A stretch of DNA of 59,990 nucleotides from a virus. Positions within the stretch are counted from its first letter, which is position 1, and every line of letters begins with the position of its first letter. Of this stretch, positions 2,633 through 47,986 are shown one piece after another. Under the pieces are notes generated by a model. The model was not told where the DNA came from, did no database searches, and was given only the letters and a program-made list of their open reading frames with translations. The position numbers were made by a program, and so were the translations under genes. The stretch lies in the IMG/VR virus record IMGVR_UViG_3300035533_000010, positions 1-59,990 of that record. One strand, written 5' to 3'.

Positions 2633-3928
2633 ATGGATTTCATGACACCCGCATCAGTACAAAACCTTCCCCGGTATATGGCAGAAGACCGGCAAAGGTC
2701 TTTGCTCCAAAGAGAGGAAGAGCGGTACGCCAAAGACCAGCAGGAAAGGAAAATGGTTGCTCAGTTCGGCATGGAGCTGATGTCTGTCCTTGATTCCGGC
2801 GGAGACGTCAAGGCGGGGCTGGATGGCTTGAAACAGAAATATGCCGGCAAGATGACACCTGACATGATGCAGCTTACGTCCAATATGGTGCAGCGGTTTA
2901 AGCAGGATCAGATTGCGCAGGAAGACCGGCAAAAACAGAACGTGCTTGAAACCACAGGCCTTGCTGATGCCGATGCAGCCAGTAGGATATTGGGGCAAAA
3001 GGCGGGGCTTATGGGTCCAGATTCCGCAGGCGGCACCGAATATTCGGTGCCGGTATCTCAGCAGGATCTTTTATTGAGCATGTCTCCACGGGGGCGGCTG
3101 GGTATGACTGAATCGCTTTTGGGGCGTCAGGACAAAGAGGCGGAGAGGGCACAACAAGCCAAAATGGACCAATCCCTTTTGGACTATAGAGCGGCGCAGA
3201 CTGAACAACTTGGCAAGCCCAAACGAACAGAAGCGCCAACTTCTTTTAGGGAATGGCAGCTTGCTGTCCAGAATGGGCACAAAGGCACCTACGAACAATG
3301 GGTCAAGGGCGATAAAGGCAGCATCACTCCAGGATCTTCAGAATACAACCTCAAAAAGCTCGAACATATTGCGGACGCGGAGAAAAACAACCTTACCGGC
3401 GAAGACCCTGCCAAGCTGAAGGCTATGGCTGCAACAGAGTTTGACGCCATGATGCAGGGTTGGCAAAAAGTTCACGACCCAGAGACGGGTCGGATGGGAT
3501 ATTTAACGCCCCAGGGCATCGTTGATGTTTATGGGAACCCGGTTGAGGCTGCGCCGGATGCCCCACCCCCCGGGCCAGACTCGGATAAGGGCGGTGGCAA
3601 AGCCGAAGGTCAGGGCCTTAATTTTGGTGGCGACCTTCCGTCTATTACCGACAATGACCAATTCCGGGGCAACATGGGCAGCCTTCTTGGCAAATATGGT
3701 GTCAACGAGTCAAAAGCCGTAAAGGATGCCTTAAAAATCACAAAGGGAGGCTTTAACCCCGAAAATGGCACAATTATTTTTAAGCCTCAAAATGAAAGCC
3801 ACATGAAGAAGGTTTTTATCGAACTGAGCAACAGTGGTATCAAGTTTGACGCAAAACAAAACGAGGACGGTACAATTTCCGTCTCTGTGGTAGATGAAGG
3901 CGAACCCCTTGTAAAGGTTGGGAAATAA
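2633..3928 (+). CDS. Hypothetical virion-associated protein, Q/E/K-rich
   Basis: I prefer ATG 2633 over the track start 2585. AGGAGA at 2623-2628 sits 4 nt upstream and this start removes the overlap with the previous gene (stop at 2624). 431 aa. Confidence 0.75.
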   Translation: MDFMTPASVQNLPRYMAEDRQRSLLQREEERYAKDQQERKMVAQFGMELMSVLDSGGDVKAGLDGLKQKYAGKMTPDMMQLTSNMVQRFKQDQIAQEDRQKQNVLETTGLADADAASRILGQKAGLMGPDSAGGTEYSVPVSQQDLLLSMSPRGRLGMTESLLGRQDKEAERAQQAKMDQSLLDYRAAQTEQLGKPKRTEAPTSFREWQLAVQNGHKGTYEQWVKGDKGSITPGSSEYNLKKLEHIADAEKNNLTGEDPAKLKAMAATEFDAMMQGWQKVHDPETGRMGYLTPQGIVDVYGNPVEAAPDAPPPGPDSDKGGGKAEGQGLNFGGDLPSITDNDQFRGNMGSLLGKYGVNESKAVKDALKITKGGFNPENGTIIFKPQNESHMKKVFIELSNSGIKFDAKQNEDGTISVSVVDEGEPLVKVGK

Positions 3929-6900
3929 ATGGCATCATGGCAAACGGGATGGCCCGGAGACAAGCAAAAGCCGGCCGCTTCAAATTGGAAATTGGGGTGG
4001 CCGACAGACCAGTCAGAAATAGACCAGGGGCCGGATCTGAAAATAATTGATCCGCTCCAAGAAGGCGCAAAGGATGTTGTGCGGTCCGGGCTTGGTGCGG
4101 CTAAGATGCTGGCCGATACAGCCCAGGGGTCTATGGCGGGTAATTTGAAAAAGGCCGTTTATGGTGCGGCAGACGCTGATATTTTAAAGCCGGACCCAGA
4201 CTATAAAAGGTCTGAGGGGTGGCGGGGATACGTTGAAGATGTCGTAAGGATGTCCCCCCAGGTAGGCGCACAATTAGGGGTTGCGTTGACACCTGGAGGT
4301 CTGGTTGGCAGCACCGCCTTTATGGGTTCGCAGATCGCTGGTGGAACATACGAAACCCTAAGAGAGCAAGACGTTCCAGTTGTCAGAGCAATTCAGGCCA
4401 GCCTTGCCAACGCTGCCATGCAAGCCCCGCTCGAAGCCCTTTCTTTGAACAGGGCGCTGAAGCTTTGGAAACCAACCAAAAAAGGCATGGGTGCGGCACG
4501 GGATATTGTTGGGGCAATGGGAACTGAATTTGTCACAGAATGGGCCCAGAAATACCCTGAATTGGCGACAGAGATATGGGCAAAAACAGAAGGTGCGCCA
4601 GCAGAAGACCGGGTGAACCAGTTTGTTGAACGATTTGCAGAGACGACGAAAGGCGGAATGTATGAAGGTGCGGTAGCTGCACCGTTTGGCGGTCTTGTTC
4701 GTGGTGCGTCTCTTGTTACGCAAAGAGGCGCAGAAGGACCACAGGTAGCCGGGAAAAAAGACCCCGCCCAAACCGCCATCGACTCCATCAACGGAGATCC
4801 CGAAGCAACCGCAGACGTTGACCGGAAATTGGAACAGATAATCGCCGGGGATACCCTGACCAAAGAAACTACCGATACCAGGGAAAGACCCTTTGATCCA
4901 TCCACCTACCAGGAAGCAGGCCTTGAGGATTGGGCCATGGCAACCCGGATGAACCAACCGCCCTTGACCCAGGCGCAGCAAAACGATGCCCGTATGCGCC
5001 AAATAGAAGCCGCTGACGAAGCGACCGGCAGGCAAATGGAGCAATGGCAGGGCCGGACAGTGGAAGTCCCTGAAACCGACCAGACAGAGTTTGGCAGACA
5101 GCAGGAAGAAGAATCCTATTGGGGCCAGCAACGCCGGGAGATTGAAAAACAGCAGGATGTCCGCAGGGTCCAGAACCAGTTAAATCTTATCAATAAGAAA
5201 AAACGCCCGTCCCAGGATGATCGGAAGAAAATCCAGGCCCTTGAATCCAGACTTATCGAATTGGCCGGACCAAAGGATAGGGTGAGACTGGAAGCGGCAA
5301 AACGACAGCGACAGATCGACCGTGAAGGCCAACCCAAACCCGCTCCGCCATCAAGCGAAACGGCTTACGCATTGCAGCAAATGAAAGCCGAAGCCCTTGG
5401 CAGCGAAACCAAAGGCGTTACTCAGGCCAATATGTTTCAGGATGAAACCATTGGTTTTTCTGCAAGTTCCCCCAAATGGATGCGGGATCTTAACGCCAAT
5501 ATGCCCAAAGGTCAGCTTTTTTCCAGAAAAGAAATAGCCGGGCTGATTGACAAATACACCAGCGGCCAGAAGATGACATCGAAACAGTTCGACCGCTTTC
5601 AACTTCTCAAAAATGCCGCAGACACATACCGCAAGACTGAAGGCGGCTATGTGTCCCAGGACATGGCAAACGACCTTGAGAGAAAAGGGTATGAAGTTTA
5701 CGCCGGCGCAGAATTTGAAGCCGGGGAACTGAAGCCAGGTGATAAGTTTGTGGGAGAGGTTGAAGGTGTCCGGGATGAATGGACAGTGGGAGACACCAAC
5801 GCAGATGGCGTGTTGATGAAAGACGGTGTTTCTAAACGTGTGGTGCCGTTTGATACTGTGAAAGTGGATGGGTATAAGCCGTTTGCCGGACTGGATCAGC
5901 AGATGGATGAGGCGGTTAAGGTTGACAATAATCTTGAAAAAGTAACGGATGATTCTGTTAAGGTTGACAATAAATCAACTGACAAGGAATCCTTAGATGT
6001 TCCGAAACAGCTTTTCCATGGCACGGCAGCCAAGGATTTTGAAACGTTTGAAGGAATACCGTATCTCACCGATAACCAGGAAGAAGCCCGTGCATTTTCT
6101 GAGGGCGTACATTTAGGCGGGGGTACCGGTGGAGCAAAAAGAGTTTTGCCGGTATCTCATAAACTCAACAAGGTTAAAGACATTGCCGGCAAGGTAGACG
6201 AGGCATTGTTTTTGGGGGAAGATATAGACGATGTTATTGGTTCTGAACTGAAGCAGGCCAAAAAAAATGGATATGATGCGGTTACATTCATGCACCCGCC
6301 AAGTGTCGGGGACAATGATTTCAGGGTGTACGTTCCAACCAGCAACGAGCTTGTAAGTATTGAAAAGACCACCCCGCCCACTGAGGTTCAAAAGGACACT
6401 GAGCAGCAGACCCCCGGTGCATCTGCTGACGGGGTGGCAACAAATAGATTGACCGATTTTTTAAAACAAGAAATAGGGTTAAAGTATGAAAAACAGGGCG
6501 CGACATGGCAAGATGTTGCGGCTTCTTTTTCAAAATCAAAAGACCCGTTCCGCTTTTATGAAGAAAGCAAAGATGAATTTCACCCTGATTCACACAAGGC
6601 AATATTCAAAAGGGTGGTCAAACAAGCCCTTACCGACAATAAACCCGTACCGCCCGAAGTGCTGAAGGATTACCCGGATCTTGCCCCCGCCACCTCTGCC
6701 GCAAGCGCAACGACAGGGGGCGTTTCTTCTAAAGCACAACCCGACATCCTCCCCAAATCCGGCAAACCCTTCCCCAACAAAGGCACTGCAAAGATGGCCC
6801 TTATCCGTGCCAAGGCAAAGGATACCCATGAGGTTGTGGAAGTTGATGGGGGGTTTGTGGGGAGGGCGAAGGGTGATCTGAAATTTCAGACCAGTGCTAA

Positions 6901-9900
6901 CAACAAAAACCTTGCCATCGTTCATAATCTGACTGGTGCAAATCTGAACCATGCCCTAAAGATGGGTGGCCTGCCTGTCCCGAGTACCGCAGTTATCGAC
7001 GTTGAAAAGTCAGAGTTCGATTCTTTTGGTGATATCACCCTGATTGCAGACAAAGATCAACTTGGCCCAGGGAAGGCCGGGAATAAATATTTCAATGCCG
7101 ATGTTTATTCTCCAAGGTATCCATCTGTTCAATATAAGCTGACGGCAAAAGATGAAAGAAATCTGGTTGATTTCCTGAATGACGCCTACAAGACTATTCC
7201 GAAACCGGAAACCGGCAGGATTGAAATTGACCACCCCATGAGCGTCGTCGGCAGCATGGACGGCAAAAGCGTTCTGGACCGGTTCACATTAAAAACATCC
7301 CCACTGGTTGAATATGCCTTCCTTAAAGAAAAGGGCAGGCTGCCGAAGAATGTAGATTATTCCGTGTGGGAATCCCGGCAGGCCATGAGAAAAGCCGTTG
7401 ATAAATTCGGCAGGGATAAGTTTGACGCATGGGTTGATCAGAAAATCGATACCCTTGGTATCCAGGAAGAAGAAAAGATATTCGACGGGTTCACGTATTC
7501 TGGCAACAGAAAATACCTAAAGCATGATCTTGATACGGTTGTCCGTATTCTGAAAAGAGAGTTGCAGGATGGAGAGGGGTTCAATTACGGGGTTCCCTCC
7601 ATTCGCTCAAAAGTGGCCAGGCAGTTCAGGACTGTCAAGCAGATTCAGGATAGCAGGGATGACATCATTTCCAAACAGGACATGGAAAAGGTCAAGGATG
7701 AGGTCAATAAAGAGTTTGATGAATTGTTCAATGAAGTTCAGCCATATCTGAAACATGCCCCCAGGTTTGGCGCACAGGATAATTTTTCTGAACACATTAA
7801 AGAGGCCATAGACGACCGGAATTTTGATGGCGTGTTTGGAGAGAACAGCGATTACTATGAACCAGGTGTTGATGTTGACGCGATCCGTGAGTTTGTTGGC
7901 AAACTTCAAAACCTTCCCACCGAATACTTTGAAGGGAAAATTCAAAGGGCAGTTGGCCTTGATGAGTTCGCTTATGCTATTGTTCCTGCCGGCACACCGA
8001 TAGCCACAAGAAGGAAACTTAACCAGCAAGGCATTAAGGTTCTGACCTATAAAAAGGGGGACCAGGCAGACCGGGCAGAGAAAATCAGGCAGGCGACAAA
8101 GACGGGTGGGTTAAGATTCCAAACCACCTACCACGGCACCCCCCACATTTGGCCCCCGGAACCCGGCTTCCCCCATGGCCGGCCCAGGCTGGATAAGATA
8201 GGGACCGGGGAAGGGGCTGCGGCTTATGGGTGGGGATTTTATACTGCCGAGGCGGCAGAAATCGGAGTGTACTACCACGAAGGTTTGTCAAAATCTCCTA
8301 TCCTGGAAACTGACAAATTCGACGGCGATTTCGTTATCCGTAATGGGCAAGAATATCCAATATATGAAACAGGAAAAAGCGAGCCGTATATCCTAACAGG
8401 CGGCACCTACAAACTTGATATCCCGGACCAAGTGATTCCAAAATTGCTTGATTGGGATGCGCCGCTGAGTGAGCAGAGTGAGTATGTCAAAAAGAAGATT
8501 GAACCAACCGTCAAACGCTTTGAAAAAGATATGGAGGCCAGGAACCCGGTTAACAGGAAAATAGCGAATGGTCAAGACTTATATAATTGGGTTCGGGCAG
8601 AAGAAAGCGATAAGATAGGGTGGGCGTCTTCACAACAGGCCGCCTCCGAATATCTCGCCTCCATCGGCATTCCCGGCAACCGCTATCTGGACGGCATGAG
8701 CCGTAATAGACCAACACAAATAAAGCGAGAGATCGGAGAAATAAAAGATACAATCCAAAAGCTAAAAAAAGAAGCTAAAGGAATAAAGCAAGAGATTAAT
8801 AACAACAGAGCGAACAAGGGATTGACGAAAAGATTCTTCACATCTCGTCAAACGAAAATCGAAGAAATAGAATCTGAAATAAAATATCGAGAATCAAAGG
8901 TTAAAGATTTAAAATCCGAGACTGGTAATTCAAACTATGTGATATGGGACCAGAAAGTACTCGACCAAATAGCCCTGCTTGAGCGCAACGGCGAAAAACT
9001 GGATGCAATCAGGAAGTTTCAGACTGGACAAACCCACGCCCAGTCTGGCAAACTAACCAAAAAGGAGAATACAAATGGCAGGACTCTGGCTGGAAAACGG
9101 GCTGCACCTTCAGATAAGCAACAGCGAAGCGAAAAGATTAGCTTCTCGGATGCAGAAAGACGGTTCAGCAACCTATTCGGATACCAAGATCCGGATGGTA
9201 CTACCCAACTCGTCAGAAGCATTACCAAAACCAATAGACAGGTCCAAAAGGTTGCGGAAGCATTAGGGCTTCAGGTCTTTTTCTTCAAGTCTGATCATCC
9301 CAAACTTTCCACAGCCAACGGGTTCACCAACAAGGGCGAGCGTGTTGTTTATATCAACGTCAAGGCCGATGATCCCCTGTTACCGATTGTCGGGCATGAG
9401 TTTATCCATCAGCTTGAGCGCAATCATCCGGATCTGTACGACTTCCTCCTGAACACTCTCAGGGTATCCGACAAAAACTTTGAAAGGTATGTTGCAACCC
9501 TTGTCAAATCCAGAGAAGGTCTGGACTTCGGGGAGTTGTCAGAAGCCAAGAAAGAAGAATTTTACGAAGAGTTTATTGGCGATTTTACCTTTGATCAGTT
9601 CCACAAAACTGAGTTTTGGCAGAAGCTTGTAAACCAGAACCGGACCATGACAGAGCGCATCATTGATGTTCTGCAATCCATCCTTGATAAAATCAGAAGC
9701 ATCTACCCCCGGGCAGAGATGTTTGTATCCAACCTGAGAGAATCGCAAGATGCTTTGGTTTCTGTTTTGGATGAGGTGATGGAGAGGGAGTTTGCGCCGG
9801 CACCGGGGATAAACAGCAAGGCATTCCGTGACTGGTTCGGTGACAGCAAGGTGGTGAATGAAGATGGTAAGCCGTTGGTGGTTTATCACGGCCGCTCCGA

Positions 9901-18153: not shown

Positions 18154-18332
18154 TGTTACGAGCATCAATCATTTGTTTCATAGTCGCAGCCCTGACGCTT
18201 TGGCTGATGGGTTGCACAGAACAAACCTATCAACCTTTCCCTGAAGGAGGCCAGGAAGTTCAGTCTCCCATCGGTTACGAGATCCACTGCCAGGAATTTC
18301 CAGATAGCGTTTTCTGTGAGGAGTCTGAATGA
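18153..18332 (+). CDS. Small lipoprotein (lipobox LWLMG-C), Pro/Glu-rich mature part, o-spanin-like
   Basis: I prefer the internal ATG 18153 (TAATG overlap). MLRASIICFIVAALTLWLMGCTEQ... is a signal peptide plus lipobox. The 40-aa mature part has 3 Cys. Confidence 0.6.
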   Translation: MLRASIICFIVAALTLWLMGCTEQTYQPFPEGGQEVQSPIGYEIHCQEFPDSVFCEESE

Positions 18333-18706
18333 AAAACCTGGCAAAAAATATCCATTGGGAAGTCTTAACGCATTTTGTCTATACACCAGATAAAGAACAG
18401 TTTCCTGAGTTCTTTGAACACTGGATGAGTCATGCTGATGAGGTAGAGGCAGGCCAGACTTTCCGAGATGATTGTGATGGGTTCGCGCTCACTTGTGCAG
18501 AGTTGCTTGTCAGGGGTGGCGCAGACGAAGGCAAGGTCAGTTTGGTCCGTTGTCTCACTGAAACAGGCGGCGGGCATCTTGTCTGTATGGCAGATGGCTG
18601 GCTACTTGATAACAGGCAGCGAACAGCGGTCAGGTGGGAAGACATCCCATATACTTGGCAGAAAAGTATGAAAATGGGTGAGGTGGGTATATGGCGGAAA
18701 ATATGA
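18329..18706 (+). CDS. Transglutaminase-like cysteine peptidase (BTLCP-like) candidate
   Basis: FRDDCDGFALTCAELLVRGGADEGKVSLVRC...GGGHLVCMADGWLLDNRQ matches the C...H...D layout of the bacterial transglutaminase-like cysteine proteinases (GDCEDYA / H / LDN). ATGA overlap with the upstream gene. Confidence 0.55.
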   Translation: MKNLAKNIHWEVLTHFVYTPDKEQFPEFFEHWMSHADEVEAGQTFRDDCDGFALTCAELLVRGGADEGKVSLVRCLTETGGGHLVCMADGWLLDNRQRTAVRWEDIPYTWQKSMKMGEVGIWRKI

Positions 18707-18879
18707 TTGAACCACAGACTGGTACACCAAAATCAAACGAGTACCGAAAACAGCTGGTTGATCAAGCAATTGAGAACCTGAAACAAAAGCTGATCAAAGA
18801 AGCTAAACCATTGCCGCCGGAGTTCAGCCGGACGGTGAATAAACATTTTTGGGAGTTGATGTCAACCACCTCGGCCTAA
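18691..18879 (+). CDS. Hypothetical protein
   Basis: 62-aa ORF with a 16-nt overlap to the upstream gene. Its stop codon lies in the loop of a small hairpin (18871-18886). Confidence 0.5.
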   Translation: MAENMIEPQTGTPKSNEYRKQLVDQAIENLKQKLIKEAKPLPPEFSRTVNKHFWELMSTTSA

Positions 18880-19148
18880 AGGCCGGAGCTTGTAAAAGGC
18901 TCCATGGTTGACCAGGGAAATGTTCAACGTTTTATGGCAAAGACAAAAAAGGAGAACATTAAAAGTTGCATAGAGAGCTAAAGACCAACGGCGGGATGCT
19001 TCCTCAGTCCCGCCCTCTTGAAGCCCGGGTTGCAGAAAACCTACAGGGGTATGGACGAAACGGGTCCGGGCAGAATGCCGCTGTGCAACAATCCCGAGGG
19101 GAGAGTTCAACCGATGCCAGGGTTGAACCGTCACCCGCCGTGTGCCCT
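18880..19148 (+). ncRNA. Omega-RNA (HEARO-like) candidate for IscB
   Basis: Hairpins seen: GGAGC/GCTCC at 18885-18903, GGCGGGA/TCCCGCC at 18990-19014, GGAC/GTCC at 19053-19067, and GTTCAACC/GGTTGAAC at 19105-19128. A second CCCGCC at 19134-19139 could form a pseudoknot. IscB guide RNAs are encoded directly upstream of the ORF. Confidence 0.55.
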
Positions 19149-20543
19149 ATGGGTGCTGTAAATGCGGAGAACGGCGTAAGCCGTGTTTTTGTACTCGACA
19201 AGAACGGTGATCCGTTGATGCCGTGCCATCCGGCCAGGGCAAGAAAGTTTCTGGCACGGGGCCGGGCCCGGGTTCACCAGATGTTTCCATTTACCATTAG
19301 ACTCGTTGACCGGATCCGGGAGAACAGTGTTGTGCAGCCGGTTAATGTTAAAATTGATCCCGGAGCCAAAACAACCGGCATGGCCGTGGTGAGACAGGAT
19401 AGTGGACATGTCCATATCATCCATCTGTCAGAATTAACCCATCGGGGCGCTGCCATCCGGAAGAAACTGGATCAAAGATCCAATTATCGGAGAAGGCGAA
19501 GGACCGCAAACCTCTGGCACAGAAAGCCCCGGTTCGATAACAGAACCCGGCCCAAAGGGTGGCTTCCGCCAAGTCTCAAATCACGGGTGGATAACACTTT
19601 ATCCTGGGTGAAAAAGTATCAAAGGATCTGCCCGGTTACAGGCATTGTCCTGGAACGGGTCCGGTTCGATACTCAGAAGCTGCAGAACCCGGATATTTCA
19701 GGGATCGAGTATCAGCAAGGCACACTGTTCGGGTATGAGGTAAAAGAATACCTGTTGGAACGATATGGCAGAAAATGTGCCTACTGCAATGGCTTGAGCA
19801 AGGATCCGGTTTTGGAGATTGAGCATTTTATCCCACGCAATCCCTCAAAAGGGGATAAGGGATCAAACCGGATCAGTAACCTGGCCATTGCCTGTAAAAC
19901 CTGTAATCAGGAATCAAAAAAGAACCTGCAGCCGGCAGATTGGATCCGCCTTTTATCCAGGTCACAAAAAAAGATAGATCAGGTCCGGGCCCAAAATGCT
20001 ACCCGATTTCTGGAAGGGAAAAGGCCCTCCCTTGCATCAACCGCAGCGGTAAACGCCACCAGGAACGCTATCTTTTTTGAACTCAGGGACCTGGGCCTGC
20101 CGGTAGAATGCTCAACCGGTGGCAGGACCAAATACAACCGGTCCCGGCTGGATATACCCAAAACCCATTGTCTGGATGCTGCCTGCACCGGCTATGTGGA
20201 TTCGGTATCCGGCTGGAAACAAAACGTGTTCCTGATAAAGGCCATGGGCCGAGGCAGTTATCAAAGAACCCGTGTGGACAAATACGGTTTTCCCCGGGGA
20301 TACCTGATGGATCAGAAAACGGTAAAGGGTTTTGCCACCGGGGATATGGTTAAAGCGATCGTTCCTACTGGTAAGAAGAAAGGAACGTATATTGGCAGAG
20401 TGGCTGTCCGGAAAACCGGCAGCTTTAATATTCAAACCAGGGAAGCTGTGGTCCAGGGTGTATCCTGGAAACATTGCAAACTCATATCCCGTCAGAACGG
20501 GTATAGTTTTCAGTGTGCAAGCCAAGTTTCCTCCCCGGCCTGA
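19149..20543 (+). CDS. iscB: IscB RNA-guided endonuclease (PLMP, split RuvC, HNH, C-terminal TAM-interaction-like domain)
   Basis: Motifs in order: VFVLDKNGDPLMPCHPARARKFL; VKIDPGAKTTGMAVV; NYRRRRRTANLWHRKPRF; IVLERVRFDTQ; CAYCNG..LEIEHFIPRN..NLAIACKTCNQ; THCLDAACTG; GFATGDMVKAIVP..GRVAVRKTGSFNI. I prefer ATG 19149 because the track start 18966 would translate the structured leader. Confidence 0.85.
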   Translation: MGAVNAENGVSRVFVLDKNGDPLMPCHPARARKFLARGRARVHQMFPFTIRLVDRIRENSVVQPVNVKIDPGAKTTGMAVVRQDSGHVHIIHLSELTHRGAAIRKKLDQRSNYRRRRRTANLWHRKPRFDNRTRPKGWLPPSLKSRVDNTLSWVKKYQRICPVTGIVLERVRFDTQKLQNPDISGIEYQQGTLFGYEVKEYLLERYGRKCAYCNGLSKDPVLEIEHFIPRNPSKGDKGSNRISNLAIACKTCNQESKKNLQPADWIRLLSRSQKKIDQVRAQNATRFLEGKRPSLASTAAVNATRNAIFFELRDLGLPVECSTGGRTKYNRSRLDIPKTHCLDAACTGYVDSVSGWKQNVFLIKAMGRGSYQRTRVDKYGFPRGYLMDQKTVKGFATGDMVKAIVPTGKKKGTYIGRVAVRKTGSFNIQTREAVVQGVSWKHCKLISRQNGYSFQCASQVSSPA

Positions 20544-20555
20544 AGACCGGGGTTT
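20533..20555 (+). terminator. Hairpin CCCCGG-N8-CCGGGG with the IscB stop codon in its loop, followed by TTT
   Basis: CCCCGG at 20533-20538 pairs with CCGGGG at 20547-20552. The loop is cctgaaga. The same hairpin family occurs at 42471-42492 and 43560-43581. Confidence 0.45.
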
Positions 20556-20571
20556 CCACTTGGAGAACTGG

Positions 20572-20955
20572 ATGAAAAAGTTACTCACAACACTGGCAAT
20601 CATTTGTTTTCTTGGAATTGGGTGTGTTCAATCTGGCGGCCCCGTCAATGAAAATAAAATCCTGGAAACGACTCAAGCAATTTATCTGGATGTCAGGACC
20701 GTGGTCACAGACCCGGAGGTGATGCCGCTTTTTACCGCTGAAGAACTTGAGCGCCTGGCGGATTTGGAACGAAAGTATCTAGAGGCTGCCAAACGGATGA
20801 AAGCCTTTCCCGAAGACGCCGAGGCCATCGAGCAGATTTCTTGGATTGCTACTGAAATTCTGACGATCATTGGCGATGTTGAGTCTATTGAAAAGTATCG
20901 GCCTTACGTTGCCGCAATCAGAATTAGTATTCAGGTTTTGAGAAATCATTTATGA
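20572..20955 (+). CDS. Lipoprotein (lipobox FLGIG-C)
   Basis: Internal ATG 20572: MKKLLTTLAIICFLGIGCVQSGG..., then a helical 105-aa mature part. The upstream part of the track ORF 20332 overlaps the iscB 3' end in another frame. Confidence 0.65.
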   Translation: MKKLLTTLAIICFLGIGCVQSGGPVNENKILETTQAIYLDVRTVVTDPEVMPLFTAEELERLADLERKYLEAAKRMKAFPEDAEAIEQISWIATEILTIIGDVESIEKYRPYVAAIRISIQVLRNHL

Positions 20956-20963
20956 GGTGATTC

Positions 20964-21332
20964 ATGACACACACCAGCACAATAATCCACATGAGGAACG
21001 TTCCCGGGAGTCCAAGGAACCGGGCCCTGGACTTGCCGTTGCCATACAAGAAAATGGACGGCACCATGGGTCTGATCCCGGCTGATTTTGAATGGGATGG
21101 GTCATCCGTGCCGTGGATCTTTCAAGGGTTCTTTCCCAGACATCGGCACCCTATTGCAAGCTGCCGGCATGACTGGCGATGCAGGAACGCCAGGACGAAA
21201 GCAGAACGGTTGTTTGCTGATCAGGAATTTGAAAAAGACGTAGGGACTACAAGCTGGTGGATCACACAGAAAGCAGGATATATCGGGGTTAGAATCGGAG
21301 CATTTTTTGGAATCGGAGTTTACAAAGACTGA
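20964..21332 (+). CDS. DUF1353-like phage protein
   Basis: GLIPADFEWDGSSVPWIF..FFPRHRHPIASCRHDWRC...AERLFADQEFEKDV resembles the DUF1353 signature (F.TDG.S.P ... HD ... AD..F). GAGGTG SD. Confidence 0.55.
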   Translation: MTHTSTIIHMRNVPGSPRNRALDLPLPYKKMDGTMGLIPADFEWDGSSVPWIFQGFFPRHRHPIASCRHDWRCRNARTKAERLFADQEFEKDVGTTSWWITQKAGYIGVRIGAFFGIGVYKD

Positions 21333-21347
21333 AAAGGTGGTTTTGAC

Positions 21348-24650: not shown

Positions 24651-25000
24651 TTTTGCCTCCTTGCCCATTCCAAAAGAAGGTCCTCATTCAAAAATACCGG
24701 GATGTCCAGCTCATATGCCCGGTCTATTTCTGCCCTTGTGCCGGTTGATTCCTTCCAGCCGGGCAAAACCAGAATACAATCCGAAACTTCCAGCCAGGCC
24801 ATTGAATAATCATAGAATTGCTGGACGGTAAAATCATCGTCCGGGCGGTCTGTGATAAAAGATTTGTCATGCCAGGGGCAGAACGGAGCAAGGCCGGCAG
24901 CGAATAGACGGGCACATGCCTGCTGGCCTCTTCCGATATTCTTGAGGACATCCAGGACGTTGTCGGCGCTGTATGGGCCGCAGACATAGACGCGGATCAT
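24647..25000 (-). CDS. Nucleoside 2-deoxyribosyltransferase-like (DUF4406-type) protein
   Basis: I prefer ATG 25000 (ATGA overlap). MIRVYVCGPYSADN...GLAPFCPWHD...DCILVLPGWKESTGTRAEI matches the Y.SGP...P...S.G...E layout of this fold. Confidence 0.55.
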   Translation of the reverse strand: MIRVYVCGPYSADNVLDVLKNIGRGQQACARLFAAGLAPFCPWHDKSFITDRPDDDFTVQQFYDYSMAWLEVSDCILVLPGWKESTGTRAEIDRAYELDIPVFLNEDLLLEWARRQK

Positions 25001-25926
25001 GGTGCCTCCATTGCAAACAGGCTTAACTGCTCGGCTTTCGTTTCCGCCTTGATCATATTTTTCACAGCGCAATTAAAATATGATTCTTTTAACTCTATTC
25101 CGATAAATTTTCTACCTGCTTTAACAGATTGATACCCCTCTGACCCTATCCCTGCGAACGGGCTTAAAACAATGTCACCAGGCTTGCTCCACAAAACCAA
25201 ACAGCGATCAATAACATCCAGAGCTAAAGGGCAGATATGACGTTCGTCTTTTTCTTCCCTGGCCCCGGCTTTGTTCAAAGTATGAGTCTGCCGAATATCC
25301 ATCCACACAGGGCTTGCATACTTGCGCCAAACCTCATGGGAGAAAGTGCCTTTCTTGACTTCATCTGCCCCGGCATATGCTGTCAACCCTTCCGGGTGTG
25401 AAATAAGATCCGGGTTTTCTCCGGGCTTGCGCATTGTCACCACGTAATCCGGCAACCCTTGCCGGCACATGGATGAATCTTTGCAAAGCTGTTTGTGCAT
25501 GAGACCCAGGGCTTTTGTCCTGGTCGCTTCAACAAGAGGGTCTTTCCAGATCGTGACCTCTCCATGGAATATGAACCCCACATCCTGAAACAACCGGATG
25601 ATGTCACCCCTGAAATCCTTCAGGCCGATATACCCATCCCGCTCCTTCATGGCAGGGATCAACATACAATGGATGGAAACCAACCGGCCAGGCTTTGTGA
25701 GCCTGTAAAGCTGCTCTGCAACGAACCGGAAATGGGTCAGAAATTCATCATCTGTTTTGCAGTTGCCAAGGTCACGCTCACTGTTTGAATACGTGTATAG
25801 CGAGGCGAAAGGCGGCGAGAATATAGTATATCCTATGCTTTCATCGGGCAGCCCTTCCATAGCCTCTACACAATCGCCGTTATATATCATCCAGTTTTCG
25901 CCAGATTCTTGTCTGATAATATCCAT
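24997..25926 (-). CDS. DNA methyltransferase, beta-class (motif IV SPPF before motif I FAGIGS); N4-cytosine or N6-adenine
   Basis: TIFSPPFASLYTYS (motif IV) and IVLSPFAGIGSEG (motif I). GGAGG lies 7 nt upstream of ATG 25926. Confidence 0.85.
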   Translation of the reverse strand: MDIIRQESGENWMIYNGDCVEAMEGLPDESIGYTIFSPPFASLYTYSNSERDLGNCKTDDEFLTHFRFVAEQLYRLTKPGRLVSIHCMLIPAMKERDGYIGLKDFRGDIIRLFQDVGFIFHGEVTIWKDPLVEATRTKALGLMHKQLCKDSSMCRQGLPDYVVTMRKPGENPDLISHPEGLTAYAGADEVKKGTFSHEVWRKYASPVWMDIRQTHTLNKAGAREEKDERHICPLALDVIDRCLVLWSKPGDIVLSPFAGIGSEGYQSVKAGRKFIGIELKESYFNCAVKNMIKAETKAEQLSLFAMEAP

Positions 25927-30224: not shown

Positions 30225-30842
30225 ATGAACCTATACATAAAGCTGGTTGACATCCGCAAATCAGTAGAATATTTGCAGAAAACCGAGCGAGGCAACCAGG
30301 GAGCAATGTACGTTGACCCGGCTGTTTTGGTCCAAAAGATTCGGGCTAAGATGGACGATGCTGGAATCCTTCTTGTGCCGTCACTGTCTGACACCACGGT
30401 TGACAGCATGCCTGACCCGACAAAGAACAATCCAAACGCCACGAGTTTTTTGTTTAGGTCCAAAATGCTTTATACTTTTATAGACGCAGAATCCGGGGAC
30501 AAGCTGGACGTGCCCTGGTTCATGACCGGGAAGCATTTGCAGGACCCGGCGATGGCTGGTGGCGCTGCTTTGACGTATTTTGAACGGTACTTTCTTCTGA
30601 AGTTCTTCCAGATCCCGACATCGAAAGATGACCCTGAACATTTTCAGGCGAAAACAGCTACGGCGATATCCGGGGATCAGGTCAAAGAAATGGCAGGGCT
30701 TATCGAGCGCACAGGTAGCGATTTAAAAGCGTTTCTGGCGTATGCGAAGGTAGATGCCTTAGAAAACATCCATCCGCTCAATTATGGTGCCTTAAAGTCC
30801 AAGCTGCTGGCAAAGGAACAGGCCATGAAGGGAGGATCATAA
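30225..30842 (+). CDS. erf: ERF-family single-strand annealing protein
   Basis: LYIKLVDIRKSVEYLQK...MYVDPAVLVQKIRAKMDDAGILLVP...AMAGGAALTYFERYFLLKFFQIPTSKDDPE matches the ERF core (A.G.A.TY..RY.L). Confidence 0.7.
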   Translation: MNLYIKLVDIRKSVEYLQKTERGNQGAMYVDPAVLVQKIRAKMDDAGILLVPSLSDTTVDSMPDPTKNNPNATSFLFRSKMLYTFIDAESGDKLDVPWFMTGKHLQDPAMAGGAALTYFERYFLLKFFQIPTSKDDPEHFQAKTATAISGDQVKEMAGLIERTGSDLKAFLAYAKVDALENIHPLNYGALKSKLLAKEQAMKGGS

Positions 30843-31381
30843 TGAACGAGACGATTACTCAAGAATTTATTAAGTCGATACTCAAGTATGATCCGCAAAC
30901 AGGCGTTTTCTCGTGGCGTAAAGACAGAGGCAGCGCAAAAAAGGGAGATGTGGCTGGAACAAAGCACCACCCGCACGGGTATGTTTATATCAAGATAAAT
31001 AAAAAAAACTACAAGGCGGCAAGGTTGGCATGGCTGTATATGGAGGGGTATTTCCCTGAACACTGTGTGGACCATATAGATAGGGATAAATCCAACGACA
31101 AGTGGATTAACTTAAGGCACGTTACTCAATCCTGTAATCTTAAAAACACTTCAAAAAGATCAAGCAACATATCAGGCATTGTTGGTGTTAACTGGGACAA
31201 GGCCAAAAGAAAGTGGCACGCGCAAATTACAGTTGATTATAAAAACCTCTGGATCGGGCGGTTTTCGCAAAAAATTGATGCCGCCCGTGCTCGCTGGGAA
31301 GCAGAAAAAAAATATAACTTTCCAGAGTGCTGTTCGAAATCAAGCGCATACTTATATCTCAAAGAGGTAGGTGCGTTATGA
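30842..31381 (+). CDS. HNH-AP2 homing endonuclease, paralog 1
   Basis: LAWLYMEGYFPEHCVDHIDRDKSNDKWINLRHVTQSCNLKN (HNH_3) plus SGIVGVNWDKAKRKWHAQITVDYKNLWIGRF..AARARWEAEKKY (AP2). It is wedged between erf and exo with 1-nt and 4-nt overlaps. Confidence 0.8.
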   Translation: MNETITQEFIKSILKYDPQTGVFSWRKDRGSAKKGDVAGTKHHPHGYVYIKINKKNYKAARLAWLYMEGYFPEHCVDHIDRDKSNDKWINLRHVTQSCNLKNTSKRSSNISGIVGVNWDKAKRKWHAQITVDYKNLWIGRFSQKIDAARARWEAEKKYNFPECCSKSSAYLYLKEVGAL

Positions 31382-31980
31382 TTATAGTTAACGGAAAACA
31401 AGGCAATGATGTCTGGCACGCACTTAGATGCGGAAATCCTGGTGCGTCAAGTATGGATAAAATCATAACATCACAAGGCAAACCCTCAACCCAACGGCAA
31501 AAATACCTTTATCAACTGGCCGGAGAAATTATCACCGACTCAAAAACAGAAACATACCAAAATGCGCATATGTCTCGTGGTATTGAGTTGGAGTCAGAAG
31601 CCAGGGAAGTGTTTGAGTTCGTCCACGGGCCGGTTGAGCAATGTGCCCTCATTTATCAGGATGAGCGCAGGCTATGGCATGTCAGCCCGGACGGAATTAT
31701 GCCGGATAAAAAAGCAGGACTTGAGATAAAAGCACCGTCTCTGCCGGTCCATGTCGAGTATCTTGACAAAGGTAAACTGCCCACGGCATACAAGATCCAG
31801 GTGCAGTCAAGCATGATGGTCACAGGCTGGCCGGCGTGGTTTTTTGTAAGTTATTATCCAGGTATGAAGCCGCTGATCCTGAAGATTGTGCGGGACGAAG
31901 CGCTGATAAAACAGATTCAGGATGCTGTGGAAAAGTTTTGTGAGGATCTGCAAAAGCTGGTCAATAAACTAAAAGGATAA
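31378..31980 (+). CDS. YqaJ / lambda-Exo-like recombination exonuclease
   Basis: I prefer ATG 31378 (ATGA overlap). WHALRCGNPGASSMDKI...MSRGIELESEAREVFE...VSPDGIM...GLEIKAPS...YKIQVQSSMMVTG is a PD-(D/E)xK YqaJ pattern. Confidence 0.8.
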   Translation: MIIVNGKQGNDVWHALRCGNPGASSMDKIITSQGKPSTQRQKYLYQLAGEIITDSKTETYQNAHMSRGIELESEAREVFEFVHGPVEQCALIYQDERRLWHVSPDGIMPDKKAGLEIKAPSLPVHVEYLDKGKLPTAYKIQVQSSMMVTGWPAWFFVSYYPGMKPLILKIVRDEALIKQIQDAVEKFCEDLQKLVNKLKG

Positions 31981-34535: not shown

Positions 34536-35096
34536 GTGCCTGCCGTGACAAAGAGAAAATCACTATCCAAAAAAATTCGGTTTAACGTATTCAAAAGAGA
34601 CAACTTCAGATGCGCTTATTGCGGAGAATCTCCGCCTAAAGTGGTGCTTGAGGTTGACCATATCACACCTGTATCAAAAGGCGGAGACAACGGTATAAAC
34701 AACCTTTTGACGGCTTGTTTTGACTGCAACAGGGGTAAAACAAACGAAAAGCTTGACACCATACCGCAAAACCTTACAAAGAAGCTTGAGGTTTTAAGAG
34801 AAAAAGAAACGCAGCTATCCGAATATAATAAGTTTTTATCAAAAGAAAAAACCAGGATTAACAGACAAATCAAATCATTGGAAAATATATTCAGATCAAA
34901 GTTTCCAGAAGAGTCTTTTTATGAAGGGTTTAAGCAAAACACCATAAAGGTTTACTTAAAATATCTTACAATTCACGATTTAAAAGATGCGATGTTAATG
35001 GCAACAGACAGGACAACTGTGCCTGGACAATGCCTTAATTACTTTCGGAGCGTTTATGGATCTAAAATATATAGGCCACCACGTGTGGGGTCATAA
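34536..35096 (+). CDS. HNH endonuclease (McrA-like core) with C-terminal extension
   Basis: FRCAYCGESPPKVVLEVDHITPVSKGGDNGINNLLTACFDCNRGK. It starts with GTG (34536 or 34545). AT-rich. Confidence 0.75.
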   Translation: MPAVTKRKSLSKKIRFNVFKRDNFRCAYCGESPPKVVLEVDHITPVSKGGDNGINNLLTACFDCNRGKTNEKLDTIPQNLTKKLEVLREKETQLSEYNKFLSKEKTRINRQIKSLENIFRSKFPEESFYEGFKQNTIKVYLKYLTIHDLKDAMLMATDRTTVPGQCLNYFRSVYGSKIYRPPRVGS

Positions 35097-35794: not shown

Positions 35795-35977
35795 ATGGAA
35801 AAAAAGCTTAATAAGCAATTTGGTATCAGGATTTGTGAAAACCAAATTAAAAACCTCGAAGAGATAGCTTGCGCTGAACAAAGAAGCGTAGCAGCTGTCA
35901 TAAGGATGATGATTGATGAAGGAATCGAAAAGAAAAAAGCTGACTCAGGGAAGGTTAAAAGAACTTCTGAATTATGA
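35795..35977 (+). CDS. Ribbon-helix-helix DNA-binding protein
   Basis: QFGIRICENQIKNLEEIACAEQRSVAAVIRMMIDEG has the same layout as the RHH at 32020. Confidence 0.55.
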   Translation: MEKKLNKQFGIRICENQIKNLEEIACAEQRSVAAVIRMMIDEGIEKKKADSGKVKRTSEL

Positions 35978-36467
35978 TCCTGAGACTGGTGTTTTTACAT
36001 GGTTGGAATCAAGGAAGGCCTGTAAAAAAGGAGAAAGAGCCGGAAATATTGGGCCGATAGGGTACGAAAGGATACAAGTATTTAGAAAGCAATACTTATC
36101 GCATAGATTGGCTTGGTTTTATATGGAAGGTTTTTTGCCAACCGGGATAGAAATAGATCATATAAATAAAAATAGGGCGGATAATAGATGGAAAAATCTA
36201 AGGCTTGTTTCAAGACAATGCAATGCTAAAAATTGTAATGTATCAAAATGGAATAAGAGCGGCATAACTGGTGTAAGTTTTGATTCATCAAGAAAAAAAT
36301 GGATGGTTCAAGCCATGGTAAATGGAGTAAAAATATCTGGTGGTAGGTTTGATGAAAAGGTTGATGCCGCATTAAAACGATTTGAAATAGAAAAAGAATA
36401 TAATTTCCCAGACTGCCAAACAACATCTTCAGCTTATTTATATTTAAAAGATAAAGGGAAGATATAA
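35913..36467 (+). CDS. HNH-AP2 homing endonuclease, paralog 2
   Basis: LAWFYMEGFLPTGIEIDHINKNRADNRWKNLRLVSRQCNAKN plus SGITGVSFDSSRKKWMVQAMVNG. The N-terminal LNYDPETGVFTW and C-terminal SSAYLYLK match paralog 1. It overlaps the RHH 3' end by 65 nt. Confidence 0.8.
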   Translation: MMKESKRKKLTQGRLKELLNYDPETGVFTWLESRKACKKGERAGNIGPIGYERIQVFRKQYLSHRLAWFYMEGFLPTGIEIDHINKNRADNRWKNLRLVSRQCNAKNCNVSKWNKSGITGVSFDSSRKKWMVQAMVNGVKISGGRFDEKVDAALKRFEIEKEYNFPDCQTTSSAYLYLKDKGKI

Positions 36468-40013: not shown

Positions 40014-40272
40014 GCGCGCTGAATAGGCCAAATTTTAACGAATAGACTTGGGTCTATACGGTAGCATGGGCCAGGGGTTGAAACTGAAAGGAACAAAAGA
40101 TGAACGGCAAACAGGCAAAACGAATCGCAACGGCGGCAATGACCGCTTGAAACACGGGATCGCTCCTTACCTCCTTGAGCCGCTGGGCCGTGGCAGCGAT
40201 AGCTGATATCCCGACAGGTTTTCATGCCCGATAAAATATCAGCAACCACGGCAACCAAAAACCAGAAAGGAG

Positions 40273-40782: not shown

Positions 40783-41666
40783 CTGAAACTCAAGCAACGT
40801 ATGAAGCAAGGCGGCATTGCAAAAACTGCGGCCTACGGGTAGATGGAATCTGTACACTCACAAAGGCAGAACACATCGAATGCCTGGCTGGTGATGAAAG
40901 AACTCACTGGCGGCTGAAGATCAAACACGACTGTCATGACTGTGGCAACACGGTGGTAAACACTATGGTTTGCAGGCTGCCGTCTGAAAAAACAGACGAA
41001 TGTCTGCGAGACCCTACAAGGCCGCACTGGAAGCTGAAAGAATTTATTAATTCAGAAACGCTACATGCCAGAACCTGCCGGTGTGACGAGTGTATTGAAT
41101 ATTGGAAGATACAGGATGGACTACAGGAAGCAGGGAGGGAAGAGGACCAGAATATTGATGGCGATACGATCAGGAAAAACAATTACCCGGTGCAGGACTT
41201 GGAGATGGAAAAAGCCCGGATGTTTACCAACCAGCGCAACCCGGACCGGAATATCCATGACCCGAACGCCCCGATCAAGGGCGCGGATGAGTATATCAGG
41301 TCGGCAAGGATAATTGAGCGGGAGCAAAAACAGGAGCCCGGCAAAAAAAATGACCATGGCAAACCCCGGTATGATCTTCTGCCCTGCGATGTGCTGGAGG
41401 AAATCACGATCATTTTCACCCATGGGGCTGAAAAGTACGGGGAATATAACTGGACGAAGGGTATGTCTTGGTCGAGGCTTTTTGCTGCAGCACAAAGGCA
41501 CCAATGGTCTTTTTGGTCTGGGGATGACGTCGATGAAGAAAGCGGTCGGCCGCACTTAACACACGCTATCGTGAACTTAATGTTTTTGCTGGCGTATTAT
41601 AAGCGAGGAATCGGGACGAAGGACAGATATTCCGATCGCGCGGAAGCGAGGTGCAACGATGAGTGA
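40779..41666 (+). CDS. Protein with duplicated Cys-rich N-terminal module and dATP/dGTP-diphosphohydrolase-N-like (DUF5664-type) C-terminal domain
   Basis: N-terminus: CKNCG..C..ECLAGDERTHWRLK and CHDCG..C..ECLRDPTRPHWKLK. C-terminus: NDHGKPRYDLLPCDVLEEITIIFTHGAEKYGEYNWTKG...AAAQRHQWSFWSGDDVDEESGRPHLTHAIVNLMFL. Confidence 0.6.
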   Translation: MTETQATYEARRHCKNCGLRVDGICTLTKAEHIECLAGDERTHWRLKIKHDCHDCGNTVVNTMVCRLPSEKTDECLRDPTRPHWKLKEFINSETLHARTCRCDECIEYWKIQDGLQEAGREEDQNIDGDTIRKNNYPVQDLEMEKARMFTNQRNPDRNIHDPNAPIKGADEYIRSARIIEREQKQEPGKKNDHGKPRYDLLPCDVLEEITIIFTHGAEKYGEYNWTKGMSWSRLFAAAQRHQWSFWSGDDVDEESGRPHLTHAIVNLMFLLAYYKRGIGTKDRYSDRAEARCNDE

Positions 41667-42192
41667 AGTTACTGAGTGGAGACCAGTGCCAGGCGCACAG
41701 CAATATCAGGTTAGCAGTCGAGGAGAAATACGGAGAAGGAATAAAAAATTAAAGCCTTTTCCAAACAAGTGGGGGTATCTACAGATCGACTTATCAGTAA
41801 AGGGAAAAAAAACGAGGTACTCCATGCACAGGTTGGTAATGCTTGTGTTTTGTGGAAAAAGCGATTTGTGTGTCCACCATAAAGATGGGGATAAGACCAA
41901 TAACCGCATGGAAAACCTATCGTATGTGACATATTCGGAGAATGAACAGCACTCTTGGGCAGGTGGGAAAAGACCCGCTTATTCTGGGGCCAAAATAACA
42001 GAGACCGATGCGTTTATTATAAGAAACAGGAGGGCCGCAGGCGAGCGCGCCGTTGATTTGGCGAAAGAGTTTGGGCTCTCCCCTCAAACCATTTGCGATA
42101 TACATAAGCGCCGTATATGGACTGACCACATCCGGGGGGTTGGAATCGATGACAGGGAGAAAGGCGGGGAGAAAGGCGGGACAGATGAGTAA
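41659..42192 (+). CDS. NUMOD4-HNH homing endonuclease with C-terminal HTH
   Basis: EWRPVPGAQQYQVSSRGEIRR (NUMOD4-like), HRLVMLVFCG...VHHKDGDKTNNRMENLSYVTYSENEQH (HNH_3), and ERAVDLAKEFGLSPQTICDIHKRRIW (HTH). Confidence 0.8.
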   Translation: MSEVTEWRPVPGAQQYQVSSRGEIRRRNKKLKPFPNKWGYLQIDLSVKGKKTRYSMHRLVMLVFCGKSDLCVHHKDGDKTNNRMENLSYVTYSENEQHSWAGGKRPAYSGAKITETDAFIIRNRRAAGERAVDLAKEFGLSPQTICDIHKRRIWTDHIRGVGIDDREKGGEKGGTDE

Positions 42193-44195: not shown

Positions 44196-44384
44196 ATGCC
44201 GCAGCGGACCCGAAAATCATTGAAACCCACACCTGGCAAGGAGATCACGCCGGAGATGATTACAATTATTCCCACCCCTGAGCCGAAATATCAGATGCCG
44301 GAGAACTACGTCAGGCCGAAGGGCCGGCGGATGTTTAATCAGGCTCCGGGGTGCTTGAGGGTGCCGAGGCACTCAGGTGGATGA
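44196..44384 (+). CDS. Doubtful 62-aa Pro/Lys/Arg-rich ORF in the short transcript
   Basis: No good SD at ATG 44196. An internal ATG follows AAGGAG by 12 nt. The composition faintly recalls the N-termini of P27-type small terminases. Confidence 0.3.
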   Translation: MPQRTRKSLKPTPGKEITPEMITIIPTPEPKYQMPENYVRPKGRRMFNQAPGCLRVPRHSGG

Positions 44385-44421
44385 TGAATAACACAACCCA
44401 CAATAGGTTAGCTACCGAACA

Positions 44422-44457
44422 GCCAAAGCCTTATGGCCTTTGTGGGTTTTCTTTTTT
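44422..44457 (+). terminator. Rho-independent terminator candidate
   Basis: An imperfect hairpin CCAAAGCC-ttat-GGCCTTTGTGG is followed by GTTTTCTTTTTT. Confidence 0.45.
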
Positions 44458-44482
44458 AAGGCAAGCACTAAAGGCGGTGTTT

Positions 44483-47780: not shown

Positions 47781-47986
47781 GCAAAGAACCAACAAAGGAA
47801 CCGACACCCGGCATTTTGATGAGCAATTCTGACGTGATCAATATCACGGAGAGCGATTTCCGCCGGCTGCACCAGCGCATGAACATGGGCGGCATCCTGG
47901 AAGGCGCGTACGGCCTGGATAACGGCATGGTCATCAGTCTTGCACAGATTATCGCCATGTCCCCCGACGGGAAAATGTTTGGTTAA
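47777..47986 (+). CDS. Hypothetical protein between terL and portal
   Basis: 69 aa, coupled on both sides. Confidence 0.6.
   Translation: MSKEPTKEPTPGILMSNSDVINITESDFRRLHQRMNMGGILEGAYGLDNGMVISLAQIIAMSPDGKMFG

Follow-up and report, generated by a model that had tools for sequence, protein, structure and literature searches.

What does an RNA-guided nuclease gene do in the late region of a tailed phage, and which DNA would it be directed against? The question is raised by a stretch of viral DNA of 59,990 nt (IMG/VR record IMGVR_UViG_3300035533_000010, positions 1-59,990; hereafter the window, to which all coordinates refer), in which an original prediction had placed an IscB nuclease with an omega-RNA-like leader at 18880-20556. 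Judged by its sequence, the module is an IscB insertion sequence of the canonical kind, intact and non-autonomous, and the replicon that hosts it is an uncommon one for such elements. It occupies 18861-20571 (+ strand; 1,711 bp), is of the IS200/IS605 type (ISC) without tnpA, and consists of an omega-RNA gene, an intact iscB and two hairpin-bearing ends, and nothing more. The explanation that we prefer, at a probability of roughly three in four, is that the IscB-omega RNA complex of this element is programmed against the element’s own empty site, and that repair from a filled genome restores or spreads the element.

Ends, guide and nuclease of the element

The ends can be read from a related viral contig in IMG/VR (L004) that is empty at this position. 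There, the counterpart of window 18720-18860 (97.9% identical) abuts that of window 20572-21337 (87%) with nothing between, and the junction reads ...CATTTTTGGGAGTTGAT|ATGAAAAAGTTACTC..., with no base duplicated or missing and no target-site duplication. In the window, the element separates ...GGGAGTTGAT from ATGAAAAAG... exactly, at the point where the stop codon of one phage late gene overlapped the start codon of the next. Comparison with other copies by blastn gives left limits of 18859-18861 in six of them (L003, L001/L019, L015, L016, L017 and L021) and right limits of 20565-20581 across ten. The module end of 20556 given originally is therefore replaced by 20571, on the basis of the L004 junction and the comparison of copies. 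An empty-site allele in a relative had been named as the finding that would tell a mobile element from a gene fixed at this locus; L004 provides such an allele, complete with a perfect guide match and the adjacent motif described below, so iscB is not fixed here.

Insertion sites were aligned for 11 copies at 11 sites, namely the window, L001, L002, L003, the viral contigs L014 and L015, and the Desulfotignum genome bins L016, L017, L018, L020 and L030. As is characteristic of ISC elements, imperfect subterminal hairpins are present at both ends and kept across the copies, and there are no terminal inverted repeats. The hairpin at the omega-RNA end (18872-18885, +; CGGCC-TAAA-GGCCG) shows a compensatory change in L001. 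The hairpin at the other end (20533-20552, +; CCCCGGCC-TGAA-GACCGGGG) ends 19 nt before the element does, holds the iscB stop codon (20541-43) in its loop, and forms in all 11 copies despite stem substitutions. Read on the opposite strand, the terminal hexamer GTCAAC (18861-66) is GTTGAC and contains the transposon-end motif TTGAC.

Directly 3' of the element, ATGAA is found at 11 of the 11 insertion sites; the opposite flanks are unrelated. The sixth base after the element is A in eight copies, C in two and G in one, and the sequences are unrelated further out. We regard this pentamer as the target-adjacent motif (TAM). In the window it lies at 20572-20576 (+; reverse complement TTCAT) and includes the ATG start of the downstream lipoprotein gene. 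The TAM of GstIscB, from the element ISGst5, is likewise TTCAT, as established by ChIP-seq and library depletion, and single-base changes in it abolish cleavage (PMC10055086). The window’s end motif TTGAC differs from TTCAT at positions 3 and 5, which is the same relation between end motif and TAM as that described for ISGst elements (PMC10055086).

On the omega-RNA side, seven copies have a left end available, and in each of them the DNA similarity sets in at 18861; the 16 nt preceding the element are unrelated in every copy. OgeuIscB uses a guide of 16 nt, and the guide is predicted to have this length here as well, in which case it would be ATTTTTGGGAGTTGAT (18845-18860, +), a piece of phage flank immediately 5' of the RNA scaffold and inside an open reading frame (ORF) at 18691-18879. 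Within the window there is no further match to this guide at up to three mismatches. The ribonucleoprotein should recognise ATTTTTGGGAGTTGAT followed by ATGAA, and this is precisely what L004 offers as predicted target (16/16 guide match, then ATGAAA). In the filled genome, GTCAAC follows the guide match, so the combination of guide and ATGAA is absent, and the filled allele would be protected because GTCAA rather than ATGAA stands next to the match. Two further viral contigs, L011 (IMGVR_UViG_3300035541_000052) and L012 (3300035039_000023), carry the same 16-mer at the end of the upstream ORF, followed by ATAAGT and a different gene; since the TAM is missing they would not be cut under a strict TAM requirement, and may be considered natural non-targets.

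The insertion has altered both of its neighbors. The upstream ORF (18691-18879, +) ends in ...HFWELMSTTSA* here versus ...HFWELI* in the empty allele; in L004 the corresponding ORF (3773-3988) ends in WELI, with its stop codon TGA sharing bases with the start codon ATG of the following gene (ATGA). The predicted C-terminus of the upstream product has thus been rewritten by the insertion. The downstream lipoprotein gene (20572-20955, +), which is coupled by the ATGA overlap in the empty allele, here follows the terminal GGAG of the element (20564-67). A GGAG resembling a Shine-Dalgarno sequence is present near the right end in 10 of the 11 copies, and may serve the translation of the lipoprotein gene in the window.

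The iscB gene itself (19149-20543, +) encodes 464 amino acids. Pfam RRXRR (PF14239) matches residues 13-191 over the full model (E 4.2e-72), which covers the N-terminal PLMP domain, the split RuvC and the bridge helix, and the NCBIfam equivalog for RNA-guided endonuclease IscB (NF040563) scores 394.8 bits against a cut-off of 175. The domain order is PLMP, RuvC-I (D70), an Arg-rich bridge helix, RuvC-II (E169), HNH, RuvC-III (H340, D343) and a C-terminal TAM-interaction region, with the motifs located at PLMP 22, IDPGA 69, NYRRRRR 112, VLERV 167, CAYC 210, IEHF 224, CKTC 249 and THCLDA 339. It had been predicted that this ORF contains every IscB landmark in order, and both the motifs and the two family databases agree. 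The HNH domain is inserted in RuvC (PF01844 and PF14279 match residues 210-262) and comprises C210xxC213, H226, N244 and C249xxC252, with H226 aligned to the catalytic His of OgeuIscB.

The closest proteins of solved structure are TbaIscB (9K30, E 1e-43) and OgeuIscB (7XHT/7UTN, E 3e-27). Domain order and catalytic residues are shared with both, at a similarity that is moderate only (E 1e-27 to 1e-43). RuvC residues D70, E169, H340 and D343 are all present, and in the alignments stand opposite the IDPG, LE and H..D motifs of the two proteins, so that a comparison with characterised IscBs, which had been suggested as a check on the assignment, reveals the catalytic residues kept and no substitution. 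Window residues D70/E169/H226/H340/D343 are those which we take to correspond to D61/E193/H247/H340/D343 of OgeuIscB. The four-Cys zinc site of the HNH domain is like that of TbaIscB, and unlike the Cys/His pattern of OgeuIscB. The OgeuIscB TAM is NWRRNA (PMC12660989); on that formulation, ATGAAA fits, but copies with ATGAAC or ATGAAG do not.

The omega-RNA scaffold extends from 18861 to 19148 (+), i.e., up to the iscB start codon. A search of the whole 60-kb window with Rfam HEARO (RF02033) yields one match, which is full length (model positions 1-211 of 211), lies at 18861-19109 in the same orientation as iscB, and scores 105.2 bits (gathering score 83; E 1e-20). The original prediction had proposed this search and an omega RNA directly upstream of iscB; the RNA is there, above the gathering score, but it starts at 18861 rather than at 18880. 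DNA similarity among the copies begins at the same base, which is position 1 of the HEARO model, so the final 19 nt of ORF 18691-18879 are also part of the structured RNA. The remainder of the scaffold is a 3' extension with an 8-bp hairpin (19105-19128), most of which falls outside the Rfam model; downstream elements absent from RF02033 have been remarked on previously by Meers et al. (PMC10055086).

Seven copies were used for a consensus fold and for comparing substitution rates. The fold has 81 predicted pairs, of which four show compensatory double changes and several show G-U substitutions, within a set of copies that are 85-98% identical and so limited in variation. Both of the GC-rich stems noted beforehand, at 18990-19014 and 19105-19128, are part of this fold. 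The pairing of the second is kept through one C-G to U-A double change. A pseudoknot between 18990-95 and 19134-39 had also been suggested originally; the seven copies vary little at these bases, and the consensus fold places 19134-36 in another helix, the one that encloses the 19105-19128 hairpin, where their partner is a GGG on the 5' side. Scaffold identity between copies is 85.5-97.6%, as against a synonymous divergence of 0.18-1.2 in the adjacent ORF; the scaffold is therefore more conserved than synonymous sites, which indicates functional constraint on the omega RNA. The ratio of nonsynonymous to synonymous substitution in iscB is 0.06-0.23, and by this measure iscB is under purifying selection, with nuclease, RNA and both ends intact. 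The assignment of the window element as an intact IscB with its omega RNA is supported by these alignments.

A search for Y1 (HUH) TnpA (PF01797) found none in 77 of the 78 called window ORFs and 46 further six-frame ORFs of 100-400 amino acids, in keeping with the earlier description of a solo module, and the element is therefore classed as non-autonomous, as are most ISC elements (review PMC13565253).

Other copies, a second site and cultured phages

Ten further sites carry elements of the same family; they lie in two other viral contigs, in two metagenome contigs and in genome bins of Desulfotignum/Desulfobacterium. These copies are 77-94% identical in DNA and lie in unrelated contexts, and the presence of one element at different sites implies that it is mobile. 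The closest IscB protein relatives (95%, 88% and 78% identity) come from a metagenome contig with IcmW and SLT, a metagenome contig with ManC, and a Desulfobacterium bin in which the gene sits beside Hdr-like genes. Copies in Desulfotignum bins have 88-91% protein identity and 86-90% DNA identity. Since the nearest copies in genome bins are those of Desulfotignum, the phage host is probably of the Desulfotignum lineage, and a host TnpA may have acted in trans.

The filled allele at 18860/20572 is also found in three further assemblies, two from Logan at 100% identity and one JGI contig with 2 differences within its final 1 kb; the contigs break inside the element, as would be expected for a repeat. 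Contig L118, considered as a second filled variant and as independent evidence of spread or co-conversion, was rejected on the grounds that in the neighborhood of the site it is essentially the same phage, its final 1 kb containing 2 mismatches. A 56-kb contig (P0004) that was considered as a related phage proved to be a bacterial chromosome segment with Hdr-like and fatty-acid genes. No relative was found on searching the metagenome contigs with the lipoprotein protein or the viral contigs with the BTLCP-like protein, and the 71 stretches that fit a degenerate guide pattern in the metagenome contigs are chance matches, none of them being similar to the window by blastn.

A second filled/empty pair comes from one of the two other viral contigs, L014. 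There, the IscB element (91% nucleotide identity) stands immediately before ATGAACGGCAAACAGGCAAAA, which corresponds to window 40100-40120. The window reads ...GAAACTGAAAGGAACAAAAG|ATGAACGGC at this place, and is thus empty where its relative is filled; the same is true of four more relatives (L121-L124). The resulting empty target site (40084-40104, +; ...CTGAAAGGAACAAAAG|ATGAA) has its junction at 40099/40100. The left junction of L014, searched for as AAGGAACAAAAG+GTCAACYACC, gave no match, and is lost at the end of the L014 contig. A small ORF that begins at the TAM of this second site has 16 codons in the window (MNGKQAKRIATAAMTA) and 53 in L014 (window 40100-40160 versus L014 1396-1560); the window version looks like the product of a deletion of ~110 nt between two AAAAGAATC-like repeats. 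In L015, a viral contig of 127 kb, the element occupies another site, beside ORFs that appear, as read by eye, to be ThyX-like and nucleotide-reductase-like. The elements of L014 and L015 are 91-93% identical to that of the window in DNA.

Among sequenced phages, IscB is rare, yet already known: tblastn against 50,697 phage records found homologues in 31. The best-defined case is Ralstonia phage Adzire (MT740725.1; L009 3002-4729), in which a HEARO RNA of 120 bits is followed by an ORF of 471 amino acids in an element of 1,728 bp. Bakoly (MT740729.1; L120 1716|1717) and Jenny, which are 98-99.5% identical to Adzire, lack the element and have an exact empty site, with a 3' flank of ATGAG. An element of the Adzire type is present at 99% identity in an unrelated group of ~57-kb Ralstonia phages (Alix, Claudette, Heva and Dimitile). 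The IscB elements of cultured phages (Ralstonia Adzire, Elie, Simangalove, Sarlave, Alix, Claudette, Heva and Dimitile) resemble that of the window in being discrete ~1.7-kb insertions of HEARO RNA and IscB in a virulent-type phage genome, and differ from it in host and in protein sequence, of which only 52% is identical. In GenBank these Ralstonia-phage genes are labelled only ‘hypothetical protein’ or ‘HNH endonuclease’, and our literature search turned up no paper in which they are treated as OMEGA elements. HEARO is listed, without comment, among the non-coding RNAs of Staphylococcus Silviavirus phages (PMC13346280). Near its IscB, Adzire also encodes a dATP/dGTP pyrophosphohydrolase.

Restoration, spread and the alternatives

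How could such an element persist in a phage? IscB and TnpB are known to cleave donor joints and to drive restoration of their elements (PMC10055086), and IscB, the omega RNA and their part in cutting donor joints are already established. A close precedent, as judged by features, is GstIscB of ISGst5 (Meers et al. 2023, PMC10055086). It shares with the window element an omega RNA 5' of the gene, a guide taken from the flank, the TAM TTCAT, an end motif distinguished from the TAM by positions 3 and 5, and a predicted target that is the donor joint or empty site. Unlike the window element, ISGst5 was studied in a bacterial chromosome, and the genome concerned also encodes its cognate TnpA.

On the preferred view, a TTCAT-recognising IS200/IS605 TnpA of a Desulfotignum-like host would have moved the element in trans into the phage genome while the phage was infecting that host. 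Late transcripts that read through the element would then supply an omega RNA beginning with the 16 nt of the left flank (18845-18860). Together with this RNA, IscB would bind the 16-mer only if ATGAA follows, i.e., at the empty site, where HNH and RuvC would cut. The break would be repaired by homologous recombination from a filled genome, possibly by way of the phage’s own recombination genes (30225-31980, +), which lie outside the element and comprise an Erf annealing protein (30225-30842; Pfam ERF, 8e-13) and a YqaJ exonuclease (31327-31980; 1e-22). After excision, such repair would restore the element; in a mixed infection, it would convert or eliminate a relative without the element.

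The second of these outcomes, in which co-infecting phages would compete or home by means of a guide RNA, is plausible, agrees with all the observations made here, and has parallels in two known systems. The free-standing homing endonucleases SegF, SegB and Mob of phage T4, known for intronless homing and marker exclusion (PMC13565253), share the predicted outcome, in that they cut the co-infecting allele that lacks the nuclease gene, which is then copied in by recombinational repair. Like T4-type homing phages, the window phage carries five Pfam-confirmed free-standing HNH genes of that kind (30842-31381, 34536-35096, 35913-36467, 41659-42192 and 44351-45031). Unlike the T4 enzymes, IscB would recognise its target by a 16-nt RNA guide and a 5-nt motif rather than by protein, and the distinction of self from non-self would be set by the insertion itself, not by sequence polymorphism. 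The TnpB drive of IS605 (Mears et al., bioRxiv 10.1101/2025.02.20.638934) shares ‘non-restorative’, TnpA-independent homing into an orthologous empty site, but concerns TnpB on laboratory plasmids, and the preprint mentions neither phages nor IscB. TnpB is also reported to carry insertion sequences through plasmid populations independently of TnpA, and OMEGA homing into ‘coinfected phages/plasmids’ has been proposed, in a 2026 review (PMC13565253). We found no study of IscB-mediated homing in phages.

A more general form of this idea, which we hold tentatively and with less than even confidence, is that IscB elements serve in nature as homing drives directed by RNA, and as weapons of competition between co-infecting phages. 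The Desulfotignum-phage members would be filled at different sites (18860/20572 here, 40099/40100 in L014), each cutting, converting or excluding relatives that are empty there, without TnpA and using Erf/YqaJ. An island of ~0.9 kb around the first site, at 90-100% identity in surroundings of 50-70%, would then be a co-conversion tract. With the element removed, the window and L004 are 98-100% identical from -140 to +50 and mostly ~88-100% identical to +500, with one 50-nt bin at 56%; to the left of about -150 and to the right of about +750, identity is only 50-70%. The island does look like a co-conversion tract, and ordinary phage mosaicism explains it equally well.

Several observations weigh against restoration and spread from the empty site. 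A read-through transcript would still require the 5' end of the guide to be generated from it. Read-through from the phage late operon is itself assumed because no promoter-like site stands out; a promoter/terminator scan of 18300-20800, including the left end of the element, gave nothing above shuffle expectation. Inside a phage that has no TnpA, restoration of the element has no work to do. Modification of the phage DNA, which encodes a methylase and a diphosphohydrolase-like domain, could affect IscB cleavage. The relative with the empty allele is at most 70% identical outside the ~0.9-kb island, so its co-infection or recombination with the window phage is not assured. Finally, the filled allele occurs essentially in one phage lineage, and thus gives no direct sign of spread between backgrounds.

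The main rival to homing is a harmless hitch-hiking insertion, in which TnpA would recently and accidentally have placed a host element at a harmless intergenic junction, and IscB would be inert in the phage cycle, to drift or be lost. The closest copies are indeed in host-like Desulfotignum bins, the filled allele is limited to one lineage, the GC content of the element is 51.7% versus 47.8% for the phage, no tnpA is found among the window ORFs searched, and the low frequency of IscB in phages (31/50,697 records) fits occasional dead-end insertions. We nevertheless consider this reading unlikely. The element family is inserted in three viral contigs at three sites, and one IscB element is found in two unrelated Ralstonia phage genera at 99% identity, which points to more than one accident. 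In addition, nuclease, RNA and ends are all undamaged and show purifying selection, and the ribonucleoprotein, if expressed, would be programmed by construction against the empty allele.

Domestication of IscB and its omega RNA, for example to repress the neighboring late/lysis genes under RNA guidance, in the manner of TldR/TnpB derivatives, or as a weapon against host DNA, is very improbable. In the ancestral arrangement, the guide does overlap the ribosome-binding/start region of a gene of the lysis cluster, and domesticated regulators derived from TnpB are known (bioRxiv 10.1101/2023.11.30.569447), but the catalytic residues are intact, unlike those of nuclease-dead regulators, both transposon ends and the logic of TAM and end motif are preserved, the guide is plain flank with no other window match and its TAM-bearing site is gone from the filled genome, a relative carries the empty allele so that the gene is not fixed, and conservation at this locus across many diverged relatives was not seen.

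Programming against the empty site, with repair from a filled genome, thus remains our preferred explanation. Its interest lies in the fact that IscB and TnpB are currently understood as preserving a transposon after excision in a bacterial chromosome; evidence that they also spread horizontally, by cutting the empty sites of further replicons, is so far confined to TnpB and laboratory plasmids, and for phages such spread is a proposal on paper. The locus is a complete natural test case, with exact ends, a 16-nt guide, a TAM that is derived from eleven sites and matches an experimental one, an uncut target in a relative, a second site that is filled in one relative and empty here and in four others, and phage recombination genes. 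It also ties the phage to Desulfotignum as its probable host, and provides a compact IscB with an ATGAA TAM, together with close natural variants and their omega RNAs. The element itself is ordinary, and the reason to follow it up is the combination of filled/empty pairs at two sites with a culturable Ralstonia analogue. Since Adzire is filled and Bakoly empty, and both are cultured, a homing experiment is feasible with existing isolates, and the Ralstonia-phage polymorphism may matter more in practice than the window element.

Phage genes around and beyond the element

The phage late/lysis context that was originally described holds. Tailed-phage genes of the window include a large terminase (46317-47780), a portal (47986-50115), a major head protein (51986-53077) and a tail-related protein (15296-17044), and a BTLCP-like peptidase, a DUF1353 protein and an M15 endolysin are encoded around the insertion.

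At least six homing-type HNH genes had been claimed for this virus. Five are the Pfam-confirmed genes given above; the sixth, ORF 17117-17716 (199 amino acids), is only HNH-like by eye and has no Pfam or NCBIfam match. This ORF is absent from L006, which is otherwise 81-98% identical and in which 245 bp (L006 10365-10610) replace 691 bp (window 17022-17713), a further presence/absence polymorphism of a free-standing endonuclease-like gene. The gene order of L006 also differs, in that the lipoprotein gene is upstream of the block corresponding to ORF 17117-17716, not downstream. In L004, roughly the same position is taken by a reverse-transcriptase-like ORF of 359 amino acids (1741-2820), recognised by the motif FRYMDDIVIF and located between tail-fibre-like and BTLCP-like genes.

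Of the five confirmed HNH genes, the HNH_3-AP2 homing-type gene at 30842-31381 sits exactly between the Erf and YqaJ genes. The HNH_3 ORF at 44351-45031 contains, in its 5' part, a match to the Rfam int-alpA RNA (RF02996; 44396-44461, +; 49.6 bits versus a gathering score of 35.8), which does not lie upstream of an integrase/AlpA gene. The phage DNA may be modified, to judge from an N6/N4 DNA methylase gene at 24997-25926 (-) and a window ORF that matches Pfam dGTP_diPhyd_N (dATP/dGTP diphosphohydrolase, MazZ-like; E 5e-32). In the structural region, positions 3929-15016 (+) form a single ORF of 3,695 amino acids.

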